Assembly (NCBI GenBank): GCA_030649055.1 | Contig: JAUSGH010000019.1 | Span: 1,454-65,453, forward strand | Reading direction: 5' to 3' | DNA length: 64,000 nucleotides | Source of the DNA: a bacterium | Lineage (GTDB): Bacteria > Patescibacteriota > Minisyncoccia > UBA6257 > JAUSGH01 | Shown here: positions 5,284 to 50,337 of the stretch, one piece after another | Layout: each line of letters opens with the position of its first letter | How positions within the stretch are numbered: position 1 is the first letter of the stretch | The notes under the pieces: model-generated | The model's database searches: none | What the model was told of the DNA's origin: nothing | What the model saw: only the letters and a program-made list of their open reading frames with translations | Made by a program: the position numbers and the translations under genes

Positions 5284-5364
5284 AAGAGTAACGTACAACC
5301 TACAACCAACAACGGACAACAGTCATAAGGTTCACGTTGTTTGTTGTCGGTTGTTTGTTGTTGG

Positions 5365-5616
5365 TTATTTCTGCTTCTTCACCCTCTGCTTCTTTGCCGT
5401 CTTTGGCGCGGCCGCGGCTTTCGTGCGGCGCGCCGTGAAGCGCTCGACGCGGCCCGCAGTGTCAATTAAGGATTGCTTCCCGGTGTAGTAGGGGTGGCAC
5501 TTCGCGCAGATTTCGACGCGGATGGATTCCCGGGTGGAGCCGGTCGTGAACGTGTTGCCGCAACCGCAGATCACTTTGGCGTTCGGGTAGTACCGGGGGT
5601 GAACACCTTGTTTCAT
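5365..5616 (-). CDS. rpmE: 50S ribosomal protein L31
   Basis: [28 protein letters not shown]...[10 protein letters not shown], the L31 CxxC zinc motif. Confidence 0.85.
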
Positions 5617-7501: not shown

Positions 7502-8618
7502 GTCTGTACGACCGGCGGGGCTTCTGCCGGTCAGAACATCGATTGAACCGACCGAACGTTCCGAACTGAATATTAGAAGCACTAAAAGTAAAAAAATGAA
7601 TGTAACATAGAATGTTTCTATTACGGTGAGCTTGTCGAACCGCTGGAAATTTTCTATGTTACCCCAAATCTGTTCCGAAGGTGGGCGTTTCGCCGACTGT
7701 GTGCACTCGTGCACATTCGAGGCGAGCCGCGAACCTTCTTTCGAGGATTTGATCCTGGTCCAGGATGAACGCTGGCGGCGTGGATAAGGCATGCAAGTCG
7801 AACGGTCGAGCGCACGTTGCGCTCGGTAGTGGCAAACGAGTTAGTAACGCCCTGGTACGTACCCCCGAGTCGGGCATAATTCCGCGAAAGCGGGACTAAT
7901 TCCCGATGGTGTCGCCTTAGGCGACTAAAGGAGCGATTCGCTCGGGGAGCGGCCTAGGTCCTATCAGCTAGTTGGTGAGGTAAAAGCTCACCAAGGCTAC
8001 GACGGGTAGGGGGGGTGAGAGCCCGATCCCCAACGAGGAGACTGAGACACGGCTCCTACACCTACGGGTGGCAGCAGTCGAGAATATTCGACAATGGGCG
8101 AAAGCCTGATCGAGCGACGCCGCGTGCAGGATGAAGGTCTTAGGATTGTAAACTGCTTTTCTACGGGAAGAAGTGTGCGTAGCACACAGTTTGTTAGTTC
8201 GTCAGTTACGCTTCGCTCTAGTTTATTAGTTGGTGAAACTAATTAACTAGCAAACGAACAGCGAGCGGAGCGAGCGGAACTAGTCAACTATGTGCTGCGC
8301 ACATTGACGGTACCGTGGGAATAAGGGGCGGCAAACTTCGTGCCAGCAGCCGCGGTAATACGAAGGCCCCGAGCGTTATCCGGATTCATTGGGCGTAAAG
8401 GGCGCGTAGGAGGTTCGGTCCGTCTCTCGTGAAATCTCGGAGCTCAACTCCGAACCCGCGGGGGAAACCGCCGAACTAGAGGGTGTTAGAGGCAGATGGA
8501 ACACACGGTGTAGGGGTGAAATCCGTTGATATCGTGTGGAACACCAAAGGCGAAGGCATTCTGCTGGGACACTCCTGACTCTGAGGCGCGAAAGCGTGGG
8601 GAGCAAAAAGGATTAGAT

Positions 8619-9690
8619 AAATCCCGTTCCGGCTCCAAAGAAACGGAACAAAGGGTGTCCCCTCCGACGGCGACGTCGGGGTGCGCATTCAGCTATATCG
8701 GGGAAGGCCGTCTTGTCAGGCGGTTAATCCCGAGGGAAGTTATTCAAGCCTCACTTTCGACTCTTTAATTATAGAGAAAAGTGGAGCTTGTGTAACCCCG
8801 TAGAGACTATGTAAGTAAGAAAATAGAAAATGACCAAGTCATTTTTGTTGGATCGATGTAAGGAAATTATTCTGGGTTCTTTGTTGGGTGATGGGTCCTT
8901 AAAGATCTATAAGCCCTACAAAAATGCCCGATTTTCCTTTCGACATTCGGTACATCAAAAAGATTATTTTTTCTGGAAAGTTGAAGAATTAAAAGAAATT
9001 TCCGGAGAGAAATCTTTTTGGGAACAAAAACCGAATAGTTTGGGAGGAGATATGTTGCGATACCAAAGTTTAGCATTAGAATTGCTTACGGAACTGCATC
9101 GGCTGACTTACGAGCATAATTGTCTCGTAATACGTCGAAAATGGCTGAACATGATGACGCCATTATCGCTTGCGATTTGGTGGCTTGATGATGGTTCGCT
9201 TATTGGCAATGGAAAGCGAGGTGTGTTTTGTACCGACCCGTTTTCGTTTCATGAACAAGAGATTTTATCGCAGTATTTACTCAAGGTTTGGAAAGTAAAA
9301 ACTGCGATTGGAAAAATTGTCCGCGAGCGGGAAGGAAAAAAAGTTGAGTACTATCGGCTATGGATTCGTTCAAGCGAAGAATTAAAAAAATTTCTTCGGA
9401 TAATCCTCCCCGAAATACCATCCGCATCTACATTGCCTAAAGTTCTTATTCTTTACAAAGATTCCCAATTACAGCAACGCTGGGTTTCTGAAGTTGTTGA
9501 AGCAACGCATTTTTCTCGAGAGATTATTGAAAGGTATCTTGCTGAGAAAAAAGCGAAATATAAGCGATTTCAGAAAATGATATAGTCCGATCCTCCGAGT
9601 AATCGGAGCATCTAATAGGTCTAAATCCCTAACGCTTAGGAATTAGGATTTAGAAATTAGAAATTGCAATTTTGCCAAGCAAAATTGTTG
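8619..9690 (+). mobile_element. group I intron in 16S rRNA (inserted after GGAUUAGAU, ends with G before ACCCUUGUAGUCC) carrying a homing endonuclease ORF
   Basis: Exon sequence diverges from the universal 16S at 8619 and resumes at 9691. The intron ends in G. Boundaries are accurate to about 1 nt. Confidence 0.75.
8830..9585 (+). CDS. LAGLIDADG homing endonuclease (two-motif, single-chain) encoded within the 16S intron
   Basis: ILGSLLGDGSL and AIWWLDDGSLIG motifs. Low-GC ORF inside the rRNA gene. Confidence 0.8.
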   Translation: MTKSFLLDRCKEIILGSLLGDGSLKIYKPYKNARFSFRHSVHQKDYFFWKVEELKEISGEKSFWEQKPNSLGGDMLRYQSLALELLTELHRLTYEHNCLVIRRKWLNMMTPLSLAIWWLDDGSLIGNGKRGVFCTDPFSFHEQEILSQYLLKVWKVKTAIGKIVREREGKKVEYYRLWIRSSEELKKFLRIILPEIPSASTLPKVLILYKDSQLQQRWVSEVVEATHFSREIIERYLAEKKAKYKRFQKMI

Positions 9691-9786
9691 ACCCTTGTAG
9701 TCCACGCCCTAAACGATGCTGATTAGCTGTCTCGAGTATCGACCCTCGGGGTGGCGTAGCTAACGCGTTAAATCAGCCGCCTGGGA

Positions 9787-9818
<32 letters not shown>

Positions 9819-9829
9819 AGACGGGGACT

Positions 9830-9864
<35 letters not shown>

Positions 9865-9942
9865 GTAAGCGAAGAACCTTACCAGGGCTTGAAATGCACT
9901 TGAAGACCGGCAGAAACGTCGGTCGTCTCTCAAGGACAAGTG

Positions 9943-9973
<31 letters not shown>

Positions 9974-10828
9974 ATCGTGAGACGTTCCCTTAAGTGGGGT
10001 AACGAGCGCAACCCCTCTCTGGTGTTATAAGTGTCACCGGAAACCGCCCCCGTTTTTGCCCGCAAGCAATGAAATGCTTGTGTTCAAAAACGGGGGAGGA
10101 AGGCGGGGATGACGTCAAATCCGCATGGCCCTCTGATGCCCTGGGCCACACACGTGCTACAATGGCCGTTACAAAGGGTTGCCAAGCCGCAAGGCGGAGC
10201 TAATCCCAAAAACACGGCCCCAGTTCAGATTGGAGGCTGCAACTCGCCTCCATGAAGTTGGAATCGCTAGTAATCGTAGGTCAGCTACACTACGGTGAAT
10301 ACGTTCTCGAGTCCTGTACTCACCGCCCGTCAAGCCAGCGGAGTCGGTAATACCTGAAGCCCAGCACTTTGTTCGCAACGCAGTTGTTAACAAAGTGCTG
10401 GGTAAGGGTAGGATCGATGATGAGGGCTAAGTCGTAACAAGGCACGCGTAGCGGAAGCTGTGCGTGGATCATCTACATAAACTTCTATAATTTTTGTTAT
10501 AGAACATAATAGATCGGAGCGCGTCGAAAGGCGCGCGTATGGCGTTCGTCGATGAGCCAAAAGTCTCGACGCGGACTTGCTTTCTGATGAAGCAAGGTTG
10601 GGATAACGCAAAAGTTTTTGATCCTTAGTTTTTACAAAAAATGCGAATGAGGCATTGCGCTCTCTTTCGCGTTTTTTGGTTGTCGTGTAACATAGAATAC
10701 ATGCCCCGTGCTACAACTTCGATGGCGCATAAGCGCGTAGAGATAGGCGAAGTCGGCGCGGAACAAGAGATGCTCTTAACATCAACGACAACCCATTATC
10801 AACATCAATCGAAGTTGTAGCACAGGGT

Positions 10829-11209: not shown

Positions 11210-11377
11210 TCGCGCTGTTTGGTTATCCACAGTTGCGTTTTTGCGCGCGCGAAGTAATCGCGGTATAGTAAGCAGGTAATAGTGCTTCGGAAAAAGCACT
11301 ATTGTTGAAGTATAAAAGGTCGATGCGACAGAGTAGCAGATACAAAGAAAAATATTCGTTATTAAAAAAATAAAAAA

Positions 11378-11959
11378 ATGAAAAAAGGATTTACCCTCAT
11401 TGAACTTTTGATCGTTATCGGCATTCTTGCCATTCTTGCGACAGCGACAATTCTCGTGTTGAACCCGGCGCAGTTGTTCGCGCAAGCGCGCGATTCACAG
11501 CGCATCTCGGACCTCTCGGCATTAAAGAGCGCGCTTGGTTTTTATCTCGCAACTGCGGCAACGCCGGACTTGGATGCGGCGGGTGGAACTTGCGCGGCAA
11601 ATTATTGGGCAAGCGTAACCCCCGCGGCGCGTCGTTTGACTGGCGCGCTTAACGTTGATCAGTCGGCAAACGTTGCGTTAACGGTGGGAGGCGCGGGCTG
11701 GGTGCCGGTGGACTTCTCCGGCGCATCAGGCGGAGCTCCACTTTCGTCTTTGCCGAAAGACCCGACCAATGCAACTGTGGGCGGAGTTGAGTACAACTAC
11801 CAGTATGGCTGTGACAGCACGAATCGCTGGTTTGAAATAGACGCGAAGATGGAGAGCACGCGCTATTCCAATGGTGGAACGAACGATGTTGAGTCAACCG
11901 ATGGTGGTCTGACGGCCGCGGTTTACGAAGTCGGAAACGACCCGGGTCTTGACCTCTAG
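11378..11959 (+). CDS. type IV pilin (prepilin N-terminal methylation motif)
   Basis: MKKGFTLIELLIVIGILAILA class III signal with G|F cleavage and E5. Confidence 0.8.
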   Translation: MKKGFTLIELLIVIGILAILATATILVLNPAQLFAQARDSQRISDLSALKSALGFYLATAATPDLDAAGGTCAANYWASVTPAARRLTGALNVDQSANVALTVGGAGWVPVDFSGASGGAPLSSLPKDPTNATVGGVEYNYQYGCDSTNRWFEIDAKMESTRYSNGGTNDVESTDGGLTAAVYEVGNDPGLDL

Positions 11960-15521: not shown

Positions 15522-15636
15522 TTTGAACATTGGACAAGTGACAATTGACAGGTGACCAACGGACGCGGGTGTTACTTCTCGTCCGTCGTCAAGTCAATGG
15601 TTAAATGTCAGTGGTCAAATGTTTCATAAACGCATT

Positions 15637-16092
15637 ATGCGCGGCTACACTCTCATTGAATTACTTATCGTCAGCGGGATTTCGATTGTGATTCTTTCCG
15701 TGGGCGCATTAGGGCTTTTGAATTATCGCGCGAGCCAGGATTTGCGGCTGGCCGCGCAGTCGGTTGCGTCAACGCTTCGCGACGCGCGCTCCAACGCGAC
15801 AACAGGGGAAGACGGATTGCGGTGGGGTGTGCGTTTTGTGGGAGGCGTGAGGGGATCCGCCACGCTATTCTCTACCGACGGAACAAGTTATCTGGCATCC
15901 GCGACAATGACGTTAAAAAGCGATTTGGAGTTCCGTGATCCGGCAACCGGCAGCACCAAAGACGTTATCTTTGACCGGTTAACCGGATATCCAATTGGGG
16001 GCACCGCTGTTATAATAGAAATAGGCGTCATAGGAAATGATGCCGTCAGTACAACGCTCAATATTTATGCGAACGGACGGATTGAATTTTAA
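15637..16092 (+). CDS. minor pilin / pseudopilin
   Basis: MRGYTLIELLIVSGISIVIL prepilin signal. Confidence 0.65.
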   Translation: MRGYTLIELLIVSGISIVILSVGALGLLNYRASQDLRLAAQSVASTLRDARSNATTGEDGLRWGVRFVGGVRGSATLFSTDGTSYLASATMTLKSDLEFRDPATGSTKDVIFDRLTGYPIGGTAVIIEIGVIGNDAVSTTLNIYANGRIEF

Positions 16093-16738
16093 TGAAAGAC
16101 GCCTGCGCCAAAAGGCTTCGGCGAGCCAAGGCGGGCAATCGCTGCTTGAGCTGATGGTGGCAATCGGCATCAGCGCGTTACTTATCGGCGGCGCCGCGAC
16201 GGTCATTGCGCTCGCGTTGCGCGTTGACGCGGTAAATAAGCCGTTGCAAGGCGCGCTCTTTGCCGCGCAGGGTTTGATTGATAATATCGCGGTGCTTGGG
16301 GAGGCGGATTGGCGGGGGAATATTGGCGCGCTTTCGCCCGCGCCGGCTACGTATTACGTGGACTCTTTGGGGGGCGATCTCGCTATTCTTTCCGGCGCTG
16401 AAACGCTCGTTATCGATGCCGTGCAATATACCCGTTATTTTACGATTGAAGACGTTACGCGTGACACGACAGGCGCCATAGCGACTCCCGGAACGCTTGA
16501 CCCGTCAACAAAAAAGATTACCGCGACGGCGGAGTGGCAGGAGGGGGTGTCAACGCCGAAATTTTCTCTGGTGAAGTATGTCGCGCGTTCGGCGCGGAAT
16601 ACGTCAAGCGCGCAAGTCGACTGGTCCGGCGGTTCGGGGCAGGTGGGTACCTTCGCGGCGAGCGATAAATATGATGTTGCCGGCGCCGGAATTGATACCG
16701 TTTCGCAGCCGGGTACGATTAAATTGCAGCTACCGTAA
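16067..16738 (+). CDS. minor pilin / pseudopilin (overlaps upstream gene in another frame)
   Basis: QGGQSLLELMVAIGISALLIGG prepilin-like N-terminus. ORF 16037..16738. Confidence 0.55.
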   Translation: MRTDGLNFNERRLRQKASASQGGQSLLELMVAIGISALLIGGAATVIALALRVDAVNKPLQGALFAAQGLIDNIAVLGEADWRGNIGALSPAPATYYVDSLGGDLAILSGAETLVIDAVQYTRYFTIEDVTRDTTGAIATPGTLDPSTKKITATAEWQEGVSTPKFSLVKYVARSARNTSSAQVDWSGGSGQVGTFAASDKYDVAGAGIDTVSQPGTIKLQLP

Positions 16739-16741
16739 ATC

Positions 16742-17701
16742 ATGGAAGCAACAAAGCAACAAAGCAATAAAGCAATAAAGCAAGGGAGCATTGCGGTAAA
16801 ACATAAAAGGGCAGTCTTGCTTCTTTGCTTCTTTGCTTCTTTGCTTTTTGTTATCCCTGCGCTCGCCGGAAACATCTCATCACAGCCGTCGGAGCGTTGG
16901 GCGTGGAGCGACGCGGTGGGCTGGATTGATTTCTTCGGCGTGACGGCAACTCCACCGGTGCTTCAGGGGTATGGGACGGGAAGCGCCATCGGAGAAGTGG
17001 CAATGGATTGCGCCACTACATCCATCGGCAATATTTGCGCAGTGAGTAATTTTAAGGTTGTGAATGACGGCTACGGTAATCTTTCGGGCTGGGCGTGGAG
17101 CGACGCCATCGGCTGGATCAGTTTTTGGTGCGGTAATGTTTCGCCGGGCGATTGCCAATCTTCAAATTATCAGGTGACGATTGATGGCGCCGGAGATTTC
17201 CACGGCTGGGCGTGGAATGACGCCATCGGCTGGATCAGTTTTAATTGTGATCATTCGGGCGATGGGGGGGCTAATCAGTGCACGACCTCAAGTTATAAAT
17301 TGAAGACGACGTATATTCCGGGGGTTCCGATGTATAGCGGTTCCTTGACCTCCAGCGTGTTTGACGCCGAGGTACCTGTTGCCTTGAATGCCATTCTTTG
17401 GAAGGGCACGCTGAACAGTCTTGTATCTTCGTCGGTGCGGTTCCGCGTCGCGTCTTCCAATTGCAGTAATGGGAAAACCAATCCGCCGGTTTGCGACGAC
17501 TCGGGAACGTGGGAGTTTTTGGGACCTAACAGCTCTACAACTGATTATTATATTCCCACCGGTCCGGACGCTCCCGCGGCGATTGATACGCGCGACCACA
17601 ACAACGTCCGCTACTTCCGTTACGAGGTTTTTATTGACTCCGATGTGTTCGGCGCGGTGACGCCCGAAATCAACGACATAATCATCAATTGGAGCCCATG
17701 A
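16742..17701 (+). CDS. secreted protein with three GWAW(S/N)DAIGWISF repeats, candidate pilus-associated adhesin
   Basis: Signal peptide KHKRAVLLLCFFASLLFVIPALA|GN. Repeats WAWSDAVGWIDFF, GWAWSDAIGWISFW, GWAWNDAIGWISFN. Octamer DNA repeats lie in codons 3-14. Confidence 0.6.
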   Translation: MEATKQQSNKAIKQGSIAVKHKRAVLLLCFFASLLFVIPALAGNISSQPSERWAWSDAVGWIDFFGVTATPPVLQGYGTGSAIGEVAMDCATTSIGNICAVSNFKVVNDGYGNLSGWAWSDAIGWISFWCGNVSPGDCQSSNYQVTIDGAGDFHGWAWNDAIGWISFNCDHSGDGGANQCTTSSYKLKTTYIPGVPMYSGSLTSSVFDAEVPVALNAILWKGTLNSLVSSSVRFRVASSNCSNGKTNPPVCDDSGTWEFLGPNSSTTDYYIPTGPDAPAAIDTRDHNNVRYFRYEVFIDSDVFGAVTPEINDIIINWSP

Positions 17702-18162
17702 TAATAAAACAAGAAAACAACCCTTCGACGCGGCTCAGGGCAGGGAAATCAAGAAAGCAACGGGGGGTAGTGGCGTTTTCAACTATACTGGTCCTTAGCG
17801 CCATCGTTGTTGAGGTGGGCATCGCGGCGAGTCTTCTGGTGTATTTTTTGAATCGTTCCAACTATGGTATCCGGCTCACCAATGAGGCGTTCGCGGCGGC
17901 GCGTGCCGGTGTTGACGATGCCATGATTCGCATCGTGCGCGCGAGGTTTTACCCATCGTGCGAAACAACATACAACCTTGTCGTCAGCGGCGCTGTAAGC
18001 GCGGATGTGACGATTCAAAATGTCGCGTGCAGTAGCGTTGCTGAAACGCAGTACATCATTTCCTCTACCGGAAAAGCGTTAGGGAAGCGCCGGACGCTTA
18101 CGGCAACGCTCGACATCAATCCCTCAACGCGGGAAGTCCGGGTGCTGAATATCGCTGAGTAG
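17689..18162 (+). CDS. pilus-associated membrane-anchored protein (PilX/pseudopilin-like N-terminal helix)
   Basis: KQRGVVAFSTILVLSAIVVEVGIAASLL single N-terminal TM. Confidence 0.4.
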   Translation: MEPMIIKQENNPSTRLRAGKSRKQRGVVAFSTILVLSAIVVEVGIAASLLVYFLNRSNYGIRLTNEAFAAARAGVDDAMIRIVRARFYPSCETTYNLVVSGAVSADVTIQNVACSSVAETQYIISSTGKALGKRRTLTATLDINPSTREVRVLNIAE

Positions 18163-19703: not shown

Positions 19704-20195
19704 TTATTGCGGTATTTCGGGCGCGCCGAAAAGCTCGTTCGCCGCTTTTTGGAATACATCCATGAACTGTTTTTTTCCGGTCGCGGAGATTTTTTTGAGC
19801 ACGAACGTTTCCGCCTTTGGGTGGCGCGCGCCTTCTGTCTTCGGTCGGATGCCGACACGTAGACGCGTGAAGTCTGTTGACCCCGTGGCGTCAAAAACGC
19901 TTTGTACGCCTTTGTGTCCGGCGGCGCCACGAGCGGTAGAAATTTTATATTCGCCGATATATATGTCGGATTCGTCGTGAACGATGAGTGTGTGTTCGGG
20001 CGAGGCAAAAGTTTTTTTCATCATAGCGCCGACGGATGCGCCGGATTCGTTCATATAGCCCGCGGTCTTTTTCGCTGCCAGCGCGGGATAATGCTTCTCA
20101 AGGTAGTCAACAAAAAGATGTCCGACGTTGTGGTAGGTGTTGGCATACTGGGGATCGTTGTTTCCGAGGCCGATAATCAGTTTGAATGGCTTCAT
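19704..20195 (-). CDS. pth: peptidyl-tRNA hydrolase
   Basis: ORF 19704..20246 trimmed to MKPFKLIIGLGNNDPQYANTYHNVGH, the Pth signature. Confidence 0.85.
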   Translation of the reverse strand: MKPFKLIIGLGNNDPQYANTYHNVGHLFVDYLEKHYPALAAKKTAGYMNESGASVGAMMKKTFASPEHTLIVHDESDIYIGEYKISTARGAAGHKGVQSVFDATGSTDFTRLRVGIRPKTEGARHPKAETFVLKKISATGKKQFMDVFQKAANELFGAPEIPQ

Positions 20196-20298
20196 GTCCG
20201 ATGTCGGATGTCCGATGTCCGAGGTTGACCGTCCGTCACCCGTCACCCGACACTCGTCATATTTGCTTTAATGCTTTTATTCTAGTAGAATATGATGT

Positions 20299-20860: not shown

Positions 20861-20924
20861 GCAACGAAGCAAAAGAGCAACGAAGCAAAAAAGTAAGAAA
20901 ACAATAAAGCAACGAAGCAAAAAA
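20861..20924 (+). repeat. eight tandem 8-bp units GCAAMRAA (gcaacgaa gcaaaaga gcaacgaa gcaaaaaa gtaagaaa acaataaa gcaacgaa gcaaaaaa) filling the lepB-hisS spacer
   Basis: Read directly. Begins 2 nt after the lepB stop and ends 1 nt before the hisS ATG. Confidence 0.85.
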
Positions 20925-22748: not shown

Positions 22749-22973
22749 ATGTCTGTCGAAGTACGTAAAAAAGAAGGGGAGTCCGCGAGCAGCTTGCTCT
22801 ACCGCTTTACAAAAAAAGTGCAGCAGAGTGGCGTATTAAAAGAAGCAAAGAAGCGTCGATTCCATAAGCGCGCTCAGAGCGGTTTGAAGCGCAAGCTTTC
22901 CGCCCTGCACCGCGTAGGAAAGAAAGTGGAGATGGATCGGATGCGGAAATTGGGATTGACCCCCGAGAGATAG
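22749..22973 (+). CDS. rpsU: 30S ribosomal protein S21
   Basis: MSVEVRKKEGE...LLYRFTKKVQQSGVLKEAKKRRFHKRAQSG resembles S21 [26 protein letters not shown]. Confidence 0.75.
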   Translation: MSVEVRKKEGESASSLLYRFTKKVQQSGVLKEAKKRRFHKRAQSGLKRKLSALHRVGKKVEMDRMRKLGLTPER

Positions 22974-22980
22974 AGAGGTA

Positions 22981-23069
22981 GCTTCCTTAGCTTTTAGCTT
23001 CATTAGAAGGGAGGTTGTACGGTCTAATGAAGCTAACGAAGCTAACCCAGCTAACCATCTAACGAAGCC
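22981..23069. repeat. inverted arms built from 9-bp units: GCTTYMTTA x3 (22981-23006) and TAAYSNAGC x5 (23025-23069)
   Basis: TAGCTTCATTAG/CTAATGAAGCTA perfect 12-bp stem. Units share AACGAAGC with the hisS-upstream octamers. Confidence 0.7.
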
Positions 23070-23074
23070 ATCGT

Positions 23075-23527
23075 ATGTTAAAAGAAAAAATCACCGCGGA
23101 TATTAAAGAGGCGATGAAATCCGGAGCCGCAGAGCGGCTTGGAGTTTTGCGCATGCTTTCATCCGCTATTGGCAATCGGAAGATTGAAAAGCGCGCGAAG
23201 ACCGGCAAAGACGAAGATTTGACCGATGATGAGGTTATGGAAGTCATCGGCAAAGAAGCAAAAAAACGCAAAGAATCCATCGCGGTGTTTGTTTCCGGCG
23301 GACGGAGCGACCTCGCGGCGCAGGAGGAAAAAGAGCTCGTTATTCTTGGCGCATATCTTCCCGCGCAGATGAGCGAAGCGGATACCGTGGCGGCGGTTAC
23401 CCGCATTGTTGATGCCGCGCCGGTTAAGGAATTAGGTCCGGTCATGAAGGCGGTGATGGCGGAGCTCAAGGGAAAAGCGGACTCCTCGCTTGTTTCACGT
23501 CTTGTAAAAGAGCGGCTTGGAGCGTAA
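23075..23527 (+). CDS. GatB/YqeY-domain protein
   Basis: MLKEKITADIKEAMKSGAAERLGVLRMLSSAI YqeY N-terminal signature. Confidence 0.75.
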   Translation: MLKEKITADIKEAMKSGAAERLGVLRMLSSAIGNRKIEKRAKTGKDEDLTDDEVMEVIGKEAKKRKESIAVFVSGGRSDLAAQEEKELVILGAYLPAQMSEADTVAAVTRIVDAAPVKELGPVMKAVMAELKGKADSSLVSRLVKERLGA

Positions 23528-23927: not shown

Positions 23928-25160
23928 ATGAAATCGCGATTCATCGTCGGGTTGGACATCGGATCGCTCGCCATCAAAGCTGCCGTGCTCGAACAAAAGA
24001 GCGACGGTAGCTTAGTGTTGCAATACGCGACTAAAGCTCCGGTGGAAGGTATGCGCAAAGGAATGGTGGATGACTTGGGCGCGGTGACGCGGTCGGTCAA
24101 CGTCGTCTTGGCGGATATTCGGCAAATCCACAAAAACGCGGCAAAACATATTTACCTCAGCATCGGCACGCCGAACGTCCGCGTGCAGATATCTAAGGGA
24201 ATCGTCGCTGTTTCCCGCGCGGATTTTGAAATTTTTAATGATGACATCGGGCACGCGATTGAAGCGGCGGAGTCCGTGAAGCTTCCGGCGAACCGGATGG
24301 TGATTCACACTATCACCGATGAGTTTGTGGTGGATGATGTCGCGGATATCAAGGACCCGTTGGGCATGATCGGGCATCGGCTGGAAGCAAAAAGTATGAT
24401 TATCGACGCGTTCGCTCCGGCGGTGAAAAATATCACGCGCGCGGTGGAGGTCGCGGGTGGTGGCATCGCGGGTCTTATTTTTGGACCTATCGCCGGCGCG
24501 CGGTCGGTGTTCAGTAAAAATCAGCGGGAGCTCGGCACGGTACTTCTTGACATCGGATTCAGCACCACGGGCATCGCGCTGTATCAGGAGCACAAACTGC
24601 TACATACGAATATTTTTCCGTATGGCTCTGGCCATATTACCAATGACCTGACGCACGGACTTAAAATTTCCGTGGAAGCCGCGGAGGGAGTGAAGCTTGC
24701 CTATGGCGCCGCGTTTGCGAAAGATGTGTCCGTTCGCGAGACTGTGGATATCTCTAAATTTGAGCCGCACGCGCGGGGGAGCATCACTCGGCGATTCATC
24801 GCGGACATCGTGGAAGCCCGGCTTGCAGAAATTTTGGAGTTCGTCAATAATGACCTTAAGGCGGTGAATAAGTCCGGTCAGCTTCCCGGGGGCGTGGTGC
24901 TTGTGGGTGGCGGGGCAAAAACTCCGGGACTTGTTGACCTTGTCCGACAAGAGTTGCGTTTGCCCACTCGGGTTGGCATTCCGGATCTTTCTATGTTCCA
25001 GATTCCCTCTGCGGAGCTTGCCGCCACGGTGGAAGACCCTGAATACGCGTGTGCCCTGGGATTAGTGCTCTGGGGTGTGGATAAGTCCGGCGAAGGAGTG
25101 CGCGTAAAGGGAGATGCTTTCGGCTGGTTGAAAAAACTGGTGAGTTACATCGTGCCTTGA
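23928..25160 (+). CDS. ftsA: cell division protein FtsA
   Basis: GLDIGSLAIKAAV N-terminus, actin-fold motifs, DIGFSTTGIALY. TGA stop. Confidence 0.85.
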   Translation: MKSRFIVGLDIGSLAIKAAVLEQKSDGSLVLQYATKAPVEGMRKGMVDDLGAVTRSVNVVLADIRQIHKNAAKHIYLSIGTPNVRVQISKGIVAVSRADFEIFNDDIGHAIEAAESVKLPANRMVIHTITDEFVVDDVADIKDPLGMIGHRLEAKSMIIDAFAPAVKNITRAVEVAGGGIAGLIFGPIAGARSVFSKNQRELGTVLLDIGFSTTGIALYQEHKLLHTNIFPYGSGHITNDLTHGLKISVEAAEGVKLAYGAAFAKDVSVRETVDISKFEPHARGSITRRFIADIVEARLAEILEFVNNDLKAVNKSGQLPGGVVLVGGGAKTPGLVDLVRQELRLPTRVGIPDLSMFQIPSAELAATVEDPEYACALGLVLWGVDKSGEGVRVKGDAFGWLKKLVSYIVP

Positions 25161-25466
25161 ACCCATCTCAAAAATCCCTCACAGTCGCGTTCGTAGCGAT
25201 TTCCTCGCATCCGCTAGGCGCGAGGAGGAGGTTGTAACCTCTGGGTTACGTCGACGACGAGCAACGCCGCGGGGTGAGGAAATCGCACGAACCCGAAGGG
25301 ATACGGCCAATTCCGGCGATTCCGGCGTCGCTCCTCCTCGGAGTATCAAGAGGATACACCTTCGGTCGTCGCTCCTAGGACTCGCCGGAATTGGCCAGTA
25401 TCGCGGCGGGAGAGATTTTCGAGATGGGTTCTAAAGTAATCGCAAATAATGCGAATCAGGCTCTTT

Positions 25467-38299: not shown

Positions 38300-40972
38300 A
38301 TGAATAAAAACATATTAAGCGTTTGTATTCTTATCTCCGGCATGCTGATTTCCGGCGCGATCGTCGGCGTTACGGGAATCGTGAACGCGCAAGAAACGGA
38401 TTCGGCGCCTGCCGGTATTCAATTTCCGATAGCGGAATTGGGTAACTGCGGAAGCAAGGAGGAGTGTAAAGTGTTTTGCAATGACTCGCAAAACAGCGAC
38501 GTGTGCTTCGCGTTCGCTGAACGGAATAATCTGATGAGCGCCGAGGAATTGGATCACGCGAAAAAGTTTAAGGATGGCGGAATGATCGGTCCCGGCAGCT
38601 GCAAGGGGCAGGCGGAGTGCGACCAATACTGTGGCAACGGGGACCACATGGAGGAATGCATCGCGTTCGCGCAAAAGAACGGAATGATGTCGTCTCGGCA
38701 ATTGGAAGAATCGCAAAAAGTGTTGGCGGCTGTCAAAAAAGGGGTGAAGCCTCCTGCGTGCGGCGGACCTAAACAATGCGATGCGTATTGCGGTAGTCCT
38801 GAACATATGGAGGAATGCATGAATTTTTCTATTGAGGCCGGACTCATGCCCGACAACCAGAAAGAGCAGATGCAGAAGACGCTTGCCGCCATAAAGCGGG
38901 GAGTGAAACCACCTGCGTGCCGTGGTCCGCAGGAATGTGATGCGTATTGCAGTAACCCCGACCACATGGAAGAGTGCGTGAATTTTGCCGTAGAGAGCGG
39001 GATGATGCCGGACAATCAAAAGGAGCAAATGCAGAAAACTTTGGGCGCGCTCAAACAGGGCATTAAACCGCCGGCGTGCCAGCCGAATCGGCCACCAAAT
39101 CAGCAAGGGCAACCTGGTGGACCCGGTCAGCAAGGTGGTCCGAATGAAGGCCAAGGTTTTAACCCGGGCTCCGGAGCGAACGGCAACGGTCCGGGTCGCG
39201 GTCAGGGCGGTCCGAGTGAGCAATTTAATCGACCGGACAATGGCTTGCCGTCGTGTGACCAGTATTGCGGCGAAGATAGCCACGTTGATGAATGTGTGAA
39301 ATTTTCCGTGGCGGTCGGCAATATGACGGAAGAGCAGGCGCAGGTTTCTATAAAAACCCGCGGCAAAGGTCCGGGCGGATGCGTGGGGAGGGAAGCGTGC
39401 GATGCGTTTTGCGGCAATCCTGACAACCAAGAAACCTGTTTTAATTTCGGAAGAGACAACGGAATGATTCCGCCTGAGGATTTGCAGCGCATGGAGGAAG
39501 GCCAGCAGCGTATGAAGGAATCGTTTTCGCAGATGCCGCAGGAAGTTGCGGATTGTCTCGCGACTTCTCTCGGCGCTGATGTTGTTGAAAAGATAAAGAG
39601 CGGATCCGGGGTCAATCCGTCGGTTGGCCGCGCGATGGGAGAATGTTTCCAAAAAAATTCTCCGCGGCAGCCGGATGGGCAGCAGCCCGGAGGGCCCGGT
39701 CAATTCGGCCAGTCGGGACAAAGCGGTCCGGGCGATCCTATGTCCGCGGATCTGAAAGAATGTGTTCGATCTCAAGTTGGAGAAGATGGTCTTACAAGAA
39801 TGCAGTCCGGAAATGTTGACGACTCCGCGTTTATGGAGAAAGTGCAAACGTGTTTTGAGAAATTCGGTCAGCCGGGTCAGTTTGGTCAACCTGGGCAATT
39901 TGGTCAGCAAGGACAAAATCAGACCGGACAGCAAAATGAGCAGATTCTGCCATGGGCGGATATGTGCGAACCTGATGGAAACGGGAATCCGACGGCGTTG
40001 GCGTGCGTTGACGGGACCGGAAAATTTGTAGTATCGGCAAAGGTAGGCTCAGATGGAAATCCGGTTTGTCCTGAAGGTTCGACGGCGAAGTGCGGTGATT
40101 ATCATCAGGATAATCAACGGAGTCAGTTTAATCAGGGCCAACCCGGTCAGAATCAAGATGATCGGGGTCAGTTCGGTCAACCGGGTGAGCCCGGACAGCC
40201 GGGCCAGCAAGGGCGGGGTTTTGGTCAGTTCATCAAAGGGTTCTTCGGGGGTCAACAGGATCAATCAAATCAGCAGGGTCCGCAGGGACAAAATCAGCCA
40301 GGTCTGGGCGGTATAAATCCGGGTAATCAGCAGATGCCGCAACAGGCCGGTCCCGGTGGCTGCAAAGGGCCGGAGGAGTGCCAAAAATACTGTACTGCTA
40401 ATCCGGAAGTATGTAAAAATTTCCAGCCGCCACAAAATCAACAAGGTCAGCCGGGACGCAATCAGCAGGGGCAACAACAAAAGCAAACCGGTCAGCGAGG
40501 ACAAATACAGCCTAACCAGCCTAAACAGCAAGGTGCCGGCTTGGGTCCCTGTGGTACGGGTCCGGGTACTTGTTCGGGTATAGGGCCTGATGATGTGAAA
40601 GGTAATAGGGGAAACGGCCCCGGCGGTCCTAACGAGGGACAAGGCTTTGATCCCGGCACAAGACAGCGTGGAGATGGCTCTGGTCAAGGTGGTCAACCCG
40701 GACAATCGGGACAGTTTCCTCCGGGAGGGGCATCGTCCGGACAATTCCCCTCCATTCCGCAATTTATACAAGGGCAACCCGGATCGACCGGTCAATTCCC
40801 GTCCCCCGGACAGTTTCCGTCCCCTCCGCAGTTTATGCAGGGACAACCCGGTCCGACCGACGGAACGCAACCCGGTCAGTTTGTGCCGCCGCCGCCGAGC
40901 CAATCCGGACAACCGGGACAATTCAATCCGCCCGTAGAGATGCAACCCCAACAACCGCCGCCGCAGCCGTAA
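38300..40972 (+). CDS. giant secreted Cys-rich repeat protein (about 7 copies of a ~57-aa C-x-G-x-x-E-C-D-x-Y-C-G-x-P-D-H-M-E-E-C-x-x-F module, Q/G/P-rich low-complexity tail)
   Basis: Signal peptide. Repeats include KPPACGGPKQCDAYCGSPEHMEECMNFSIEAGLMPDNQKEQMQKTLAAIKRGV. Tail has QPGQFGQPGQFGQQGQ runs. Confidence 0.6.
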   Translation: MNKNILSVCILISGMLISGAIVGVTGIVNAQETDSAPAGIQFPIAELGNCGSKEECKVFCNDSQNSDVCFAFAERNNLMSAEELDHAKKFKDGGMIGPGSCKGQAECDQYCGNGDHMEECIAFAQKNGMMSSRQLEESQKVLAAVKKGVKPPACGGPKQCDAYCGSPEHMEECMNFSIEAGLMPDNQKEQMQKTLAAIKRGVKPPACRGPQECDAYCSNPDHMEECVNFAVESGMMPDNQKEQMQKTLGALKQGIKPPACQPNRPPNQQGQPGGPGQQGGPNEGQGFNPGSGANGNGPGRGQGGPSEQFNRPDNGLPSCDQYCGEDSHVDECVKFSVAVGNMTEEQAQVSIKTRGKGPGGCVGREACDAFCGNPDNQETCFNFGRDNGMIPPEDLQRMEEGQQRMKESFSQMPQEVADCLATSLGADVVEKIKSGSGVNPSVGRAMGECFQKNSPRQPDGQQPGGPGQFGQSGQSGPGDPMSADLKECVRSQVGEDGLTRMQSGNVDDSAFMEKVQTCFEKFGQPGQFGQPGQFGQQGQNQTGQQNEQILPWADMCEPDGNGNPTALACVDGTGKFVVSAKVGSDGNPVCPEGSTAKCGDYHQDNQRSQFNQGQPGQNQDDRGQFGQPGEPGQPGQQGRGFGQFIKGFFGGQQDQSNQQGPQGQNQPGLGGINPGNQQMPQQAGPGGCKGPEECQKYCTANPEVCKNFQPPQNQQGQPGRNQQGQQQKQTGQRGQIQPNQPKQQGAGLGPCGTGPGTCSGIGPDDVKGNRGNGPGGPNEGQGFDPGTRQRGDGSGQGGQPGQSGQFPPGGASSGQFPSIPQFIQGQPGSTGQFPSPGQFPSPPQFMQGQPGPTDGTQPGQFVPPPPSQSGQPGQFNPPVEMQPQQPPPQP

Positions 40973-46559: not shown

Positions 46560-46660
46560 GGGGTTCTCCTTTCAAAAAAACCAATCGAAGCACCGATCTA
46601 CTATAGCACAAGCATGCGGAAAATGAAAAGCGCTTGGTTTATTCAGTTCGTCAGTCGGCA

Positions 46661-46704
46661 TTAATAACATTCCGACATTCTCAAGAATGTCGGAATGTTA
46701 TTAA
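46661..46704. repeat. palindromic element copy A (TTAATAACATTCCGACATTCTCAAGAATGTCGGAATGTTATTAA)
   Basis: Perfect palindrome. Embeds the TAA stop of the helicase gene. Confidence 0.85.
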
Positions 46705-48431
46705 TCGTCTTTGAAAAGTATGCGGGCGAAGCGGAGGTCGTCGAAGGAATATTTTTCCCGGAAATGTTGAAACACCGGCGTCAATTTTTCGTGTCCGATG
46801 GTGTGAAACGCGGCGTGGATTTCCGGCAGGGCGTTTTTTAATTCCGTGGATATAAATGTGGCGAGTTCTGCTTGCGTCACGGCGCCTTTTTTATAGAGAT
46901 CGGTAATGTGCGCGCAGACCGTTCCCGGCGTGAGGTTCCGGATTGCGGCAACTTCGGCGATTGTTTTTCCGCTTTGAAGCAGCGCATGCGTCATGGCAAT
47001 CGTCGGTTGTTTTGCCCCGCCCCGAGCCCCGTTTGTTTCCATGTTTTTTTGTTTCATTGTTTCATTGCTCGCTGTATTGCCTCCGCACGCGAGAATAAAA
47101 TCCCTATGCGCCGCCGCGGCGGTTTCCGCGGACGTGGCGCTCTGTGCGTGTGCCGCCACAACCGATGCGCCGCGGAATGCTTCGTCTTTCACGAGTATCT
47201 CCGGATGCACCTGAAACGCGCGTTCATTCCAGCCCAAAAGATGCAGTCCCGAAAGTTGCCGCACGCGGGAGAGTGCCACATACCCCTGGCCGAATTCAAA
47301 CACATTCCGTAAATCCATCACCGCTTCGTCCAAACTCATTCCTTGGCTTTTATGCACGGTGATTGCCCAGGCGAGGCGCAACGGAATTTGTTTGATGCGC
47401 GCGAGCGGCCGGTCGTTTTCCTCTATCATCCACTCCACCGGCTCAACTTCAATGCGTTCCCTTCGGCGTGTTTCCACTATCGGGTAACCGTCATGCGCGC
47501 TAAAACCCACCACTACTCCCAGCGTGCCGTTCACATAACCCTCCTTCTGATTATTCTTTGTGAACATCACCGCCGCGTTGATTTTCAAGAATAGCGTTTC
47601 CGGCGAAAGGCAGTTTTTGATGAGTGTAGCCGCGAGCTTCGGCGCTCCCTGTGAGGTCATCAAAAATGAATTTTCGTGACCCGGGAGGCGCTTGAGCATC
47701 TCCGCATTGATGCGGTCTACGTCGGCATTATGCGTGAAAAGTTTCGGCGCGTTTTTCGGCGCGGTCGCCAGTGAAGTCATTCTTTTTGCGATGTGCGCGA
47801 GGTGCGTTTCGTTAAATATGTTTTGCCTGATGGCGGAAAGCACGCCGAGGAATTCCGGGTCATCCTGCCGGTGCTGTTCCTCGAGGTAGCACACCGTGAG
47901 GTTGGCGTCTCCCCAAGCGGTTGAGTCATACGCGAACACCGGCGGGTTGTCGTCGGCAAATGATGCTTGCCCGGCTTCTGCTTCCCGCCGCTTCACAATC
48001 GGAGGAAGCTGGAAAAAGTCGCCCACCAGCACCACTGGCAACCCGCCGAACGGTTCTGTTTTTGATAAAACTTCCCTACATGCGGCGTCTACCATCGTCA
48101 ACGTGTTTGCGGAAAGCATGGACACCTCGTCAATAATCAGCACCTTCGCGCGGCGCATGCGTTTCACCACGCGCTCATTTGCGGCTATCATGCGCAGGTC
48201 ATATTTTGTGAGCGCTTCTTTGATGCCAATGCCGCTCCACGCGTGGATGGTCATGCCGCCGATGTGCGTCGCGGCTATACCCGTTGAAGCGGTGATTGCC
48301 GGCTCAATATCGTGCTCGTGCAGCCAGCGTACATAGTGATTCACCGTGTGCGTTTTCCCGCTGCCCGGCTCGCCGGTCAAAAATACATTCGCTCCGGTCT
48401 TCAATATTGTGAGCGCCTCCTCTTGTGTCAT
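46701..48431 (-). CDS. PIF1/RecD-family ATP-dependent DNA helicase with C-terminal HTH domain
   Basis: Walker A GEPGSGKT, AAA_30-type core, LVGDFFQLPP, C-terminal helix-hairpin region. Confidence 0.7.
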   Translation of the reverse strand: MTQEEALTILKTGANVFLTGEPGSGKTHTVNHYVRWLHEHDIEPAITASTGIAATHIGGMTIHAWSGIGIKEALTKYDLRMIAANERVVKRMRRAKVLIIDEVSMLSANTLTMVDAACREVLSKTEPFGGLPVVLVGDFFQLPPIVKRREAEAGQASFADDNPPVFAYDSTAWGDANLTVCYLEEQHRQDDPEFLGVLSAIRQNIFNETHLAHIAKRMTSLATAPKNAPKLFTHNADVDRINAEMLKRLPGHENSFLMTSQGAPKLAATLIKNCLSPETLFLKINAAVMFTKNNQKEGYVNGTLGVVVGFSAHDGYPIVETRRRERIEVEPVEWMIEENDRPLARIKQIPLRLAWAITVHKSQGMSLDEAVMDLRNVFEFGQGYVALSRVRQLSGLHLLGWNERAFQVHPEILVKDEAFRGASVVAAHAQSATSAETAAAAHRDFILACGGNTASNETMKQKNMETNGARGGAKQPTIAMTHALLQSGKTIAEVAAIRNLTPGTVCAHITDLYKKGAVTQAELATFISTELKNALPEIHAAFHTIGHEKLTPVFQHFREKYSFDDLRFARILFKDD

Positions 48432-48515
48432 GCACCAAGTGTAGCAGAATTTTCTTCGTCATTGCGAGGCGGTGCACAAATTGGAGATTAGCGAACGGTG
48501 TAGTAAAATTAAAAT

Positions 48516-48725
48516 ATGGCTCAGCAAGGAATGTTTAATGCCGCACTCGCCCTTCTTCTTTTCTTGATTTATTTTTTGCCGACCATTATTGCCGGCTTCA
48601 GTGGGAAGCGGAATGGCTGGGCGATTTTTGCATTAAACTTTTTTCTCGGGTTTACATTTATCGGCTGGATTATTGCGCTGGTGTGGGCATTAACAAAAGA
48701 TAGCGTCCAAGTGGAGATAAAATAG
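48516..48725 (+). CDS. superinfection-immunity-like small membrane protein (Imm_superinfect family pattern)
   Basis: YFLPTIIAGFSGKRNGWAIFALNFFLGFTFIGWIIALVWAL. Confidence 0.55.
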   Translation: MAQQGMFNAALALLLFLIYFLPTIIAGFSGKRNGWAIFALNFFLGFTFIGWIIALVWALTKDSVQVEIK

Positions 48726-48734
48726 AGTTAGTGT

Positions 48735-49241
48735 ATGACCCTCGGCAACATATTCAAGCTCATCATTTCCATTGTCGTCTCCGAACTCGCCGGCGTGATC
48801 GGCGCGTTATATACGACTCCGGCGATACAATCCGGTTGGTATGCCGGCCTTATCAAACCCGCCATCAACCCTCCGGCGTGGGTGTTCGGTCCCGCGTGGA
48901 CAACCCTCTACGCGCTGATGGGTATTTCGCTTTTCCTCATCTGGAAAGAACATTCTAGCATTCTGCAGAATGTTAGAATGTTCCGAATATGGAAAATCGG
49001 CGTCGCGGTATTTTTTATTCAACTTGCGCTTAACACTCTCTGGTCAGTTATCTTTTTCCGTCTTCATTTACTTGGTGGAGCGTTTATTGAAATCATCTTC
49101 CTCTGGCTCGCTATTCTTGTCACTATCATCGCGTTCGCCAAAATTTCCCGCCCCGCGGCATACTTGCTTTTACCCTATATCCTTTGGGTAGCTTTCGCGG
49201 CGTACTTGAACTACAGTATTTGGGCGTTGAATGTGCTTTAA
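48735..49241 (+). CDS. tspO: TspO/MBR (tryptophan-rich sensory protein) family
   Basis: WYAGLIKPAINPPAWVFGPAWTTLYALMG signature, 5 TM. Confidence 0.8.
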   Translation: MTLGNIFKLIISIVVSELAGVIGALYTTPAIQSGWYAGLIKPAINPPAWVFGPAWTTLYALMGISLFLIWKEHSSILQNVRMFRIWKIGVAVFFIQLALNTLWSVIFFRLHLLGGAFIEIIFLWLAILVTIIAFAKISRPAAYLLLPYILWVAFAAYLNYSIWALNVL

Positions 49242-49246
49242 CGACT

Positions 49247-49288
49247 AAATAACATTCCGACATTCTCAAGAATGTCGGAATGTTATTT
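49247..49288. repeat. palindromic element copy B (AAATAACATTCCGACATTCTCAAGAATGTCGGAATGTTATTT)
   Basis: Perfect palindrome immediately after the tspO stop. Confidence 0.85.
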
Positions 49289-49308
49289 TATAGATTTACG
49301 GGTGTATA

Positions 49309-49968
49309 ATGAAATTAATGAATATATTATTTCAAGATTTTTTCGCTAATCTTTCCGGCGTGTTTCGCGGGCGGAACTTGTATTGGCACTTGCTCGCCGT
49401 TCTGTTGACGCTCGGGCTGGTTCTTTCCGGATTTGATTGGTATTACGCGACTATAACCCGTGGCGGCGTTGTCGCAAAAATTTTATTCCCCGCAGTTTTT
49501 TTCGGCGGTCTTTTGCCGATTATTTTGCCGCTCGTTATCGTGACGCTCGGGGCGGTGAAGCGGAGCGCTTATACCATCCGTGCCGGCTGGGCGACGGGGC
49601 AAGCGGCCATCGTCGGATTACTTGCTTCATTTTTCTATAAAGCACTCACGGGCAGGGCGCATCCGGAATTGATATCGGCGGCGCTTGGCGACATTTCGCG
49701 CGTGTTCCATTTCGGATTTTTACGTGGCGGAGTATTTTGGGGCTGGCCATCTTCGCACACTACCGTTGCCTTTGCCGTCGCGGCGGCGCTTGCGACGCTG
49801 TATCCGAAAAATACATACGTCGTATATCTCGGATTTTTGTATGCGCTGTACGTCGGATTTGGCGTTTCTATGAGCATCCACTGGTTTTCGGATGCCGTCG
49901 CCGGCGCTATTATCGGCATCGTTGCCGGGGTAACCATCGGCAAAAGTTTTCTTAATCCGAAAATATAA
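49309..49968 (+). CDS. PAP2-family phosphatase (undecaprenyl-diphosphatase/phosphatidate phosphatase-like)
   Basis: KALTGRAHP, PSSHT, SIHWFSDAVAG motifs (KxxxxxxRP, PSGH, SRxxxxxHxxxD). Confidence 0.75.
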   Translation: MKLMNILFQDFFANLSGVFRGRNLYWHLLAVLLTLGLVLSGFDWYYATITRGGVVAKILFPAVFFGGLLPIILPLVIVTLGAVKRSAYTIRAGWATGQAAIVGLLASFFYKALTGRAHPELISAALGDISRVFHFGFLRGGVFWGWPSSHTTVAFAVAAALATLYPKNTYVVYLGFLYALYVGFGVSMSIHWFSDAVAGAIIGIVAGVTIGKSFLNPKI

Positions 49969-50002
49969 CATTCCGATATTCTTGAGAATGTCGGAATGTT
50001 AT
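49965..50002. repeat. palindromic element copy C (ATAACATTCCGATATTCTTGAGAATGTCGGAATGTTAT, inverted loop orientation)
   Basis: Embeds the TAA stop of the PAP2 gene. One arm mismatch (GATATT vs GACATT). Confidence 0.8.
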
Positions 50003-50016
50003 GGTACGCTGGAACG

Positions 50017-50286: not shown

Positions 50287-50321
50287 CATTCCAACATTCT
50301 TGAGAATGTTGGAATGTTAAA
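50282..50321. repeat. palindromic element copy D (TTTAACATTCCAACATTCTTGAGAATGTTGGAATGTTAAA)
   Basis: Perfect palindrome with a compensated arm variant (CCAACA/TGTTGG). Embeds the TAA stop of the ArsR gene. Confidence 0.85.
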
Positions 50322-50337
50322 TACGGATTTTAAAATT

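Follow-up and report, generated by a model that had tools for sequence, protein, structure and literature searches.

In contingency loci, short repeat units whose length is not a multiple of three lie at the 5′ end of a gene for a surface protein, and a change in the number of units shifts the reading frame. In the opa genes of Neisseria, CTCTT repeats are located within the region coding for the signal peptide. The heptanucleotide repeats of hmw in Haemophilus influenzae are a further example of simple-sequence-repeat contingency (PMC12721329). The present work concerns a 64,000-nt stretch of DNA (contig JAUSGH010000019.1 of assembly GCA_030649055.1, positions 1,454 to 65,453 of the forward strand, hereafter the window) from an uncultured Paceibacteria bacterium of the Candidate Phyla Radiation, and in it two octamer arrays, inverse to each other, at the beginning of a gene for a secreted protein with tryptophan-rich repeats (hereafter the W-repeat gene). 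A reading of the letters alone (hereafter the sequence-only reading) had seen in these arrays the classic design of a contingency locus. The explanation favoured here, to which roughly an even chance can be given, is that the arrays are the arms of a conserved stem-loop belonging to a clade-wide class of repeat-armed elements, overprinted at this gene as signal-peptide codons, and not a high-frequency switch.

Like contingency loci, the W-repeat gene has short units that are not a multiple of three at its 5′ end, and, as in opa, they lie within the signal-peptide coding region. Unlike in such loci, the perfect tracts are very short, the unit number is conserved across species, no polymorphism was observed, the array is paired with an inverse one and the same architecture is present at housekeeping genes and in spacers.

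Among described systems, the one that comes nearest to the start-proximal arrays is that of the TAACTGA heptamers, which are repeated in direct orientation immediately upstream of start codons in Beggiatoaceae and in some Cyanobacteria and Bacteroidetes (MacGregor 2015, PMC4679880). The arrays of this system contain two to six units abutting the starts, those of essential genes included, in spacers without canonical ribosome-binding sites, and a post-transcriptional role was proposed for them; one unit is used genome-wide, the repeats are predicted to be unstructured and a single indirect repeat was reported (PMC4679880). The leaders of hisS (20861-20924), of a pilin gene (11363-11386) and of pth in the window likewise abut start codons in spacers poor in ribosome-binding sites. 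Unlike the TAACTGA repeats, the Paceibacteria loci each have their own unit, their neighbouring arrays are inverse in 57% of cases and form hairpins, and the W-repeat array lies after the ATG and is translated.

Stem-loops stabilising upstream mRNA or setting operon stoichiometry are exemplified by the repetitive extragenic palindromic (REP) elements in E. coli malEFG and by the hairpins of the puf operon. The resemblance to these lies in a long stem-loop that immediately follows, within an operon, the stop of a short structural gene (the pilin gene, and also rpmE and rpsU); the difference lies in arms made of tandem repeats with locus-specific units instead of a dispersed family and, at the W-repeat gene, in a stem that is translated as part of the next gene. 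The short tandemly repeated repetitive (STRR) sequences of cyanobacteria are tandem heptamers concentrated in the non-coding DNA of certain lineages, with a few unit sequences shared genome-wide and not characteristically arranged as inverse pairs. The window arrays are similar to STRR sequences in being short tandem units found largely in the non-coding DNA of particular lineages, and the shared units and the absence of a characteristic inverse pairing set STRR apart. The tandem repeats of Borgs, which are archaeal extrachromosomal elements, are described in the available part of the source as pervasive, fast-evolving and independently arising both between and within genes, the genic ones creating disordered protein regions, and that part describes, unlike what is seen for the window arrays, no hairpin pairing or gene-start association (PMC9879509). 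No description of repeat-armed hairpins in Patescibacteria was found in the literature.

The W-repeat coding sequence (CDS) extends from 16742 to 17701 on the plus strand, as do all the features of this gene listed below. The first arm (16748-16783, codons 3-14) is composed of GCAACAAA x2, GCAATAAA x2 and GCAA and is translated as TKQQSNKAIKQ. It is followed by a 33-nt spacer (16784-16816), GGGAGCATTGCGGTAAAACATAAAAGGGCAGTC, which encodes GSIAVKHKRAV and is not conserved in the lineage of the related locus L089, and by the second arm (16817-16848, codons 26-36), an inverse array of TTGCTTCT x3 and TTGCTTTT that encodes the hydrophobic core LLLCFFASLLF. Both arrays, visible on direct reading, were also detected with Tandem Repeats Finder (TRF) at 16746-16783 (period 8, 4.8 copies, score 62) and at 16817-16850 (period 8, 4.4 copies, score 61), and shuffles place them far from chance: the window contains 27 occurrences of the 12-mer GCAACAAAGCAA, with at most 2 mismatches allowed, and shuffled sequences contain 8.1 ± 2.4. 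The perfect tracts measure 20 and 30 nt, and the perfect units number 2 + 2 in the first arm and 3.75 in the second.

The RNA from 16735 to 16862 folds with -42.8 kcal/mol (z-score -4.07), and none of 200 shuffled sequences folds as well. The main predicted stem-loop (16755-16852, codons 5-37) is built of 6-bp helices with 2-nt internal loops between them, as the mutual complementarity of the arrays that had been claimed is real but imperfect, 6 of the 8 positions of each unit being paired. Similarly, of the claim of a long mRNA hairpin around the start codon, the long predicted hairpin itself was retained and its placement was corrected, since the stem is located just downstream: the minimum-energy fold leaves the AUG (16742-16744) unpaired, with the main stem starting 13 nt further on. 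A consensus terminator scan, which covered only loops of 3-8 nt, did not flag this stem, which is A/U-rich and followed by UUUUUGUU; the terminator and promoter scans were both uninformative. The only Rfam match was the 16S rRNA, and no tRNA or tmRNA was found.

The arrays do lie inside the signal-peptide coding region. A Sec-type signal peptide is predicted for residues 1-42 (16742-16867) from the sequence, the family alignment and a helix at residues 20-34 of the AlphaFold2 (AF2) model. It consists of a long polar and basic n-region, MEATKQQSNKAIKQGSIAVKHKR, an h-region, AVLLLCFFASLLFVIPA, and A40-L41-A42 preceding G43-N44-I45, so that the succession of KHKR, hydrophobic core and A40-L41-A42 is that of a signal peptidase I substrate. 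Every homologue in the alignment has basic residues ahead of the hydrophobic core and an AxA-(T/G)NI junction, whereas the N-terminal insertion of about 13 residues carried by the window protein, TKQQSNKAIKQGS, which is the translation of the first arm, is absent from the rest of the aligned family. No canonical start other than the ATG at 16742 precedes the basic n-region. A downstream start excluding the repeats, which had been named as a possible objection, was looked for and rejected, as the in-frame triplets before the h-region are just ATA (16775) and ATT (16790), and TTG at 16817 would delete the basic n-region that all the homologues keep. The arrays are regarded as coding because the insertion is seen in the alignment and no downstream start is credible. 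The GGGAG motif in the loop was discarded as a ribosome-binding site, as the 16S rRNA has no CCUCC.

The A-rich arm is thus read as the polar, lysine-rich n-region and the U-rich arm as the hydrophobic core. In other Paceibacteria members of the family (P0131 compared with P0133 and P0138, and P0140 compared with P0141) the mature parts are more than 90% identical and the signal peptides are entirely different and differ in length; this swapping shows that the region is rapidly replaced across the family.

As exact-protein look-ups revealed no other contig of the same species in the collections, related genomes were used for comparing the unit number; two scans of metagenome DNA gave 0 matches to a 20-mer from the loop and a single, unrelated contig (L088) for a 24-mer from the array. 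The related loci L089, L090 and L091, which come from three independent assemblies, are identical through the entire array and hairpin region. Between the window and L089, the first arm is identical at 42 of 48 nt without gaps and the second at 28 of 32, with the same number of units in both arms, which does not agree with the variability expected by the sequence-only reading. The arms together share 70 of 80 nt (87.5%) compared to 74.7% for the mature CDS (binomial P = 0.004). The L089 arrays are degenerate. The loop, on the other hand, has been replaced, with 33 nt in the window and about 76 nt, including a nested G+C hairpin, in L089, and the L089 region folds with a z-score of -4.55. Of the 33 homologous stem pairs, 26 are unchanged, 4 have a one-sided change and are still paired, 3 are broken and none has changed on both sides. 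As far as these sequences go, conserved arms, a free loop and a constant unit number at about 25% nucleotide divergence are the opposite of a hypermutable tract, and the conservation of the arms with a free loop, along with the excess of inverse pairs described below, is evidence that the stem itself is probably under constraint.

Three array alleles have been seen (those of the window, of L001 and of L089-L091; five assemblies in all), and every one of them keeps an open frame. L001 does not contain about 130 nt present in L089 although the flanks are identical, and four octamer units (32 nt), the ATG among them, have been duplicated in L089 (1469-1504) as well as in L090 and L091. The ancestral ATG of L089 now opens an upstream open reading frame (ORF) of 11 codons (MEATQQQSNKT), whose TGA overlaps the new in-frame ATG (ATGA). 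The cluster at 90% identity that contains P0002, the nearest homologue, includes proteins of 286, 308 and 333 aa, and the identical DNA of the L089 lineage has been annotated at NCBI with either a 286-aa or a 333-aa product. The length variants P0142 and P0143 (286 aa) as opposed to P0144 (333 aa) were therefore rejected as frameshift alleles, being start-call choices on identical array DNA, and so was P0124 (274 aa instead of 288). The lesson for annotation is that repeat-rich 5′ ends have given inconsistent starts, 286 and 333 aa on the same DNA, and as start calls vary on identical DNA, differences in length are not to be read as phase variation. In the other array-bearing orthologues clustered at 90% identity, members sharing a signal peptide have invariant array-encoded N-termini. 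L002, L003 and L004 are identical in DNA and so provide no information about strains.

The arrays of the W-repeat gene are far from solitary. In the window, TRF detects 28 arrays with a period of 7-9 nt or twice this length, where 40 dinucleotide shuffles have 4.6 ± 2.1, a six-fold enrichment not shared by other periods (10 against 6.4). The units differ from locus to locus. A pooled set of 84 loci, comprising the window and 83 related loci, contains 226 arrays and 479 crudely called genes. Its arrays peak within ±100 nt of gene starts; they are rich in A upstream and over the first 44 nt, and rich in T from +45 to +120. Out of 47 pairs of neighbouring arrays, 27 (57%) are inverse copies with at least 75% complementarity and 5 are similar in direct orientation, while only 1.7% of random array pairs from different loci reach at least 75% complementarity. 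Upstream arrays occur at 11-14% of genes in all classes, and arrays in the 5′ CDS at 23% of W-repeat genes, 14% of other genes with hydrophobic N-termini and 4% of the remaining ones.

In the window, predicted hairpins having tandem 7-9-nt arms with locus-specific units are present after rpmE (5285-5372, z-score -5.5), between pilC and the pilin gene (15522-15630, -3.6), upstream of pth on the minus strand, where the ATG is inside the last unit (20185-20275, -2.3), and between rpsU and yqeY (22970-23080, -4.2). Arrays of heptamers or nonamers are also found next to pth, a pilin gene (11363-11386) and yqeY. The spacer before hisS is filled by a leader array of eight GCAAnnAA-type octamers (20861-20924) that ends 1 nt before the ATG and has no inverse partner; its units are of the same family as those of the W-repeat arrays, and a related ATAAAGCA x5 is found at the same place in L002 (10018-10057). 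The spacer between pilC and the pilin gene has a tandem-heptamer hairpin in three lineages, where the units GACAAGT, ATACGAA and AGAAGTA are unrelated and the folds have energies of -42.5, -47.2 and -36.1 kcal/mol. At this place the predicted structure persists while the sequence turns over. The array at 47032-47067 was considered as a gene-start leader and was not counted, since it may lie inside a long ORF of the minus strand.

The genome has evidently lost Shine-Dalgarno (SD) pairing. The 16S rRNA gene (7737-10479) is 2743 nt long as compared to the 1533-nt model, owing to large insertions, and its 3′ end (about 10460-10479) reads GGATCATCTACA instead of GGATCACCTCCT, with the CCUCC anti-SD missing. 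Within this gene, there is also an ORF at 8830-9585 and a heptamer array at 9636-9665. No SD motif was found upstream of about 35 gene starts in the window, and nearly all the pooled loci are SD-poor as well. This agrees with the anti-SD loss documented for a subgroup of Parcubacteria (PMC9297842).

Taking these observations together, it is quite reasonable to suggest that one of the two arrays forms the 5′ arm and the other the 3′ arm of a stem-loop from a class whose units of 7-9 nt differ at every locus and which would populate intergenic and gene-start sequences in the anti-SD-less Paceibacteria clade. At the W-repeat gene, the hairpin would have been drawn into the reading frame, with the A-rich arm becoming an extra stretch of the n-region and the U-rich arm the core, a pair of arms which the genetic code would naturally make suitable for a signal peptide. 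The element would act on the mRNA as an intercistronic hairpin. The ATG is separated from the TAA of the upstream pilin gene (16736-16738) by 3 nt, and the main stem begins 17 nt after that stop and 13 nt after the AUG, so it could restrict free initiation and tie translation to the ribosomes of the pilin gene; in other words, initiation on the W-repeat cistron may depend on ribosomes arriving from there. Other possible roles of the stem are protection of the pilin message at its 3′ end and partial termination, and the arms were presumably built by replication slippage and copying between arms.

A broader proposal can be put forward tentatively, and is rather doubtful as it stands: locus-specific hairpins with 7-9-nt repeat arms would constitute, in anti-SD-less Paceibacteria, an undescribed general class of post-transcriptional elements at cistron boundaries, growing by concerted slippage and open to overprinting into signal peptides, as an A-rich arm gives polar and basic residues and its U-rich complement hydrophobic ones, so that these peptides could arise and be replaced rapidly in this way. 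If the hairpin class is functional, it would show how the expression of operons is organised in bacteria that have lost SD pairing, and it would tie a nucleic-acid structure directly to the way in which the signal peptides of pilus-associated proteins are made and quickly replaced; these proteins are of importance for host attachment in ultrasmall episymbionts.

Several observations weigh against the stem-loop being a functional element. The equally close L002 and L005 have no hairpin at the W-repeat gene (z-scores of +0.3 and +0.6), their arrays being located in the spacer, and the hairpin of L001 is weak (-1.9). No double compensatory changes were seen in a comparison that comprises two lineages, and the high identity of the arms could stem from homogenisation of the repeats rather than from selection. 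The 3-nt distance between stop and start is not conserved, being 30 nt in L001 and L089. Arrays are present in 25% of tandem, 18% of convergent and 8% of divergent spacers, and since all spacer types carry them, no single 5′ or 3′ role fits all arrays. The start regions of W-repeat genes do not fold with stronger z-scores than those of other genes, and the function of the hairpin is something we infer from predicted folds. The arrays could instead be a neutral by-product: in this clade, tandem duplication of 7-9 nt and template switching from one inverted copy to the other would be frequent, and their products would survive in weakly constrained places such as spacers, signal-peptide N-termini and low-complexity linkers, with the hairpin having no function. 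Such an origin is a serious rival, if on the whole a somewhat improbable one. It would account for units that differ per locus, for orthologous spacers carrying unrelated arrays or none, for the occurrence of arrays in every type of spacer, for the concentration of 5′-CDS arrays where the N-terminus is hydrophobic (23% in W-repeat genes, 14% in the other genes of this kind and 4% in the rest), for the wholesale swapping of signal peptides among orthologues more than 90% identical and for the difference of about 130 nt between L001 and L089 despite identical flanks. What it does not readily explain is why the arms are better conserved than the gene and the loop is not, why 57% of neighbouring arrays are inverse as against 1.7% by chance, why the hairpin in the pilC-pilin spacer was kept in three lineages with unrelated units, and how a stem of -43 kcal/mol at codons 5-37, which should be costly if useless, has been tolerated.

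A contingency locus, in which slipped-strand gain or loss of 8-nt units would toggle the pilus-associated secreted protein on and off within the population, is possible but unsupported at this gene and appears quite unlikely. The claim that unit changes shift the frame did hold in silico, where an ORF of 6-69 aa is left when either arm gains or loses 1 or 2 units and 3-unit changes keep the frame. The setting is suggestive too: the 8-nt units, at codons 3-14 and 26-36, occupy the 5′ CDS of a host-attachment locus gene whose product is secreted, the perfect tracts measure 20 and 30 nt, and higher-order unit changes have occurred in evolution, such as the 32-nt duplication that put the ancestral ATG of L089 out of frame. 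Against this, there is no long perfect tract (2 + 2 and 3.75 units); the unit number is the same in the window and L089 at 75% CDS identity; no repeat-number polymorphism was found among the relatives compared (L089-L091, the window against L089, and the clusters, in which array-encoded N-termini are invariant wherever the signal peptide is shared); all three array alleles are open and the homologous arrays of L089 degenerate. Nor do the arrays prefer genes for surface or host-interaction proteins, as equivalent ones are present at hisS, pth, yqeY, rpsU and rpmE, and among genes with hydrophobic N-termini the W-repeat genes show no enrichment over the others. No known contingency design, moreover, includes a paired inverse array. 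It is very improbable that the octamers act in DNA, as protein-binding sites or a cruciform (an operator, a nucleoid-associated or a recombination site): the perfect palindromes of an unrelated family at 46660-50322, which have a tandem sub-structure, show that DNA palindromes are used in this genome, yet the array units differ at every locus and so offer no common binding motif, the one-sided changes of the G-U type preserve pairing in RNA only, and the sense strand is polarised in composition relative to the gene, A-rich and then U-rich. Hardly more can be said for selection of the peptide itself, in which the extended lysine-rich n-region made by the first arm would serve targeting or slow export and the nucleotide repeats would be incidental. 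The MEATKQQSNKAIKQGS of the window does resemble MKATRQRSNKTIKQGG of P0144, but all the other family members in the alignment have short n-regions, L001, from the same 90% cluster as P0144, is without most of the long one, and the conservation is at the nucleotide level and includes the inverse arm.

The product of the W-repeat gene is identical to MDO8585251.1 (locus tag Q7R85_04020), a 319-aa hypothetical protein of an uncultured bacterium. The three tryptophan-rich repeats ascribed to it were found at residues 52-64 (RWAWSDAVGWIDF, 16895-16933), 116-128 (GWAWSDAIGWISF, 17087-17125) and 155-167 (GWAWNDAIGWISF, 17204-17242), with A54, W55, G60, W61 and D63 of the first being invariant in alignment A1. 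The structure prediction that had been suggested for this region was run with AF2 on a 120-sequence alignment and gave a confident model (mean predicted local distance difference test score 90.2, predicted template modelling score 0.75) with an N-terminal helix corresponding to the signal peptide, a β-rich domain containing the three repeats and a C-terminal β-sandwich (approximately residues 195-319, 17324-17698; strands at 199-318). The latter weakly resembles discoidin, FVIII-C2, neuropilin-b1 and carbohydrate-binding module folds (Foldseek against PDB, probability 0.8-0.96, E-value 0.03-0.1), with no PDB match of the model at an E-value of 1e-3 or below. Profile searches with the protein gave no Pfam or NCBIfam matches and no PDB chains with an E-value below 0.2. 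It is plausible that the protein would serve the pilus system as an adhesin-like or ligand-binding accessory. As a widespread and confidently modelled pilus-operon protein outside known families, it is a reasonable structural target. The protein collection contains 369 matches to the family, under the names Harrison-, Lipton-, Wolfe- and Colwellbacteria, and GTDB representative genomes contain 454 related loci.

The gene is situated in a type IV pilus operon with the order pilin, unknown, PilB, PilC, pilin, pilin, W-repeat gene, unknown and PilN-like, and the location of a secreted product inside a pilus locus, as proposed from the sequence, is borne out by these neighbours and by conservation in other pilus operons. 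The three pilins have Pfam N_methyl matches at 11378, 15619 and 16037, the last of these being the upstream gene (16037-16738, plus strand, E-value 2.6e-5). The W-repeat protein, unlike its neighbours, had no N_methyl match in the Pfam scan and lacks the class III prepilin signal (G/FTLIE). The order PilB-PilC-pilin-pilin-W-repeat-unknown-PilN-like is common to the window and L002/L003, and pth, a signal peptidase gene, hisS, HIT, rpsU and yqeY are located downstream of the operon. The next gene (17698-18162, plus strand) codes for a 154-aa protein with no function assigned, and the overlap of its ATG with the TGA of the W-repeat gene (ATGA) suggests that the two may be translationally coupled. 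Its N-terminus (17698-17760) is encoded by A-rich quasi-repeats, and the same gene in L002 (6918-6955) contains the perfect 16-mer ACAAAAAAGCAAGAAA x2.4 within the CDS.

Heptamer arrays are present, independently, at the same place in distant W-repeat orthologues, namely L024 (2408-2545), L009 (75-165) and the starts of L050, L071 and L072. In L024, (AAATTCC) x9.4 occupies the first 67 nt of the CDS and is followed by a GGAATTT-like inverse stretch; (AAAATTC)n encoding MKNYNSKFKI is common to several species.

Elsewhere in the window, arrays with periods of 9 and 18 at 39861-39906 and 40507-40834, inside the ORF 38300-40972, encode low-complexity sequence rich in G, Q and P and keep the frame, unlike the arrays near gene starts. 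A non-coding gap at 25158-25440 (plus strand) is predicted to adopt a Y-shaped fold whose ends pair (-148.7 kcal/mol, z-score -9.65); with no Rfam match at an E-value of 0.1 or below and no tRNA or tmRNA found in it, it is a candidate structured RNA or large palindromic element. Five near-perfect palindromes of 36-44 nt are located in spacers within 4 kb (46660-46705, 48948-48983, 49247-49288, 49965-50002 and 50281-50322). They form the family AACATTCCGACATTCT|AGAATGTCGGAATGTT, in which each arm is a tandem of ACATTC-type units. A start codon at 50314 is inside a 3′ arm, and the five look like operators of a local regulon.

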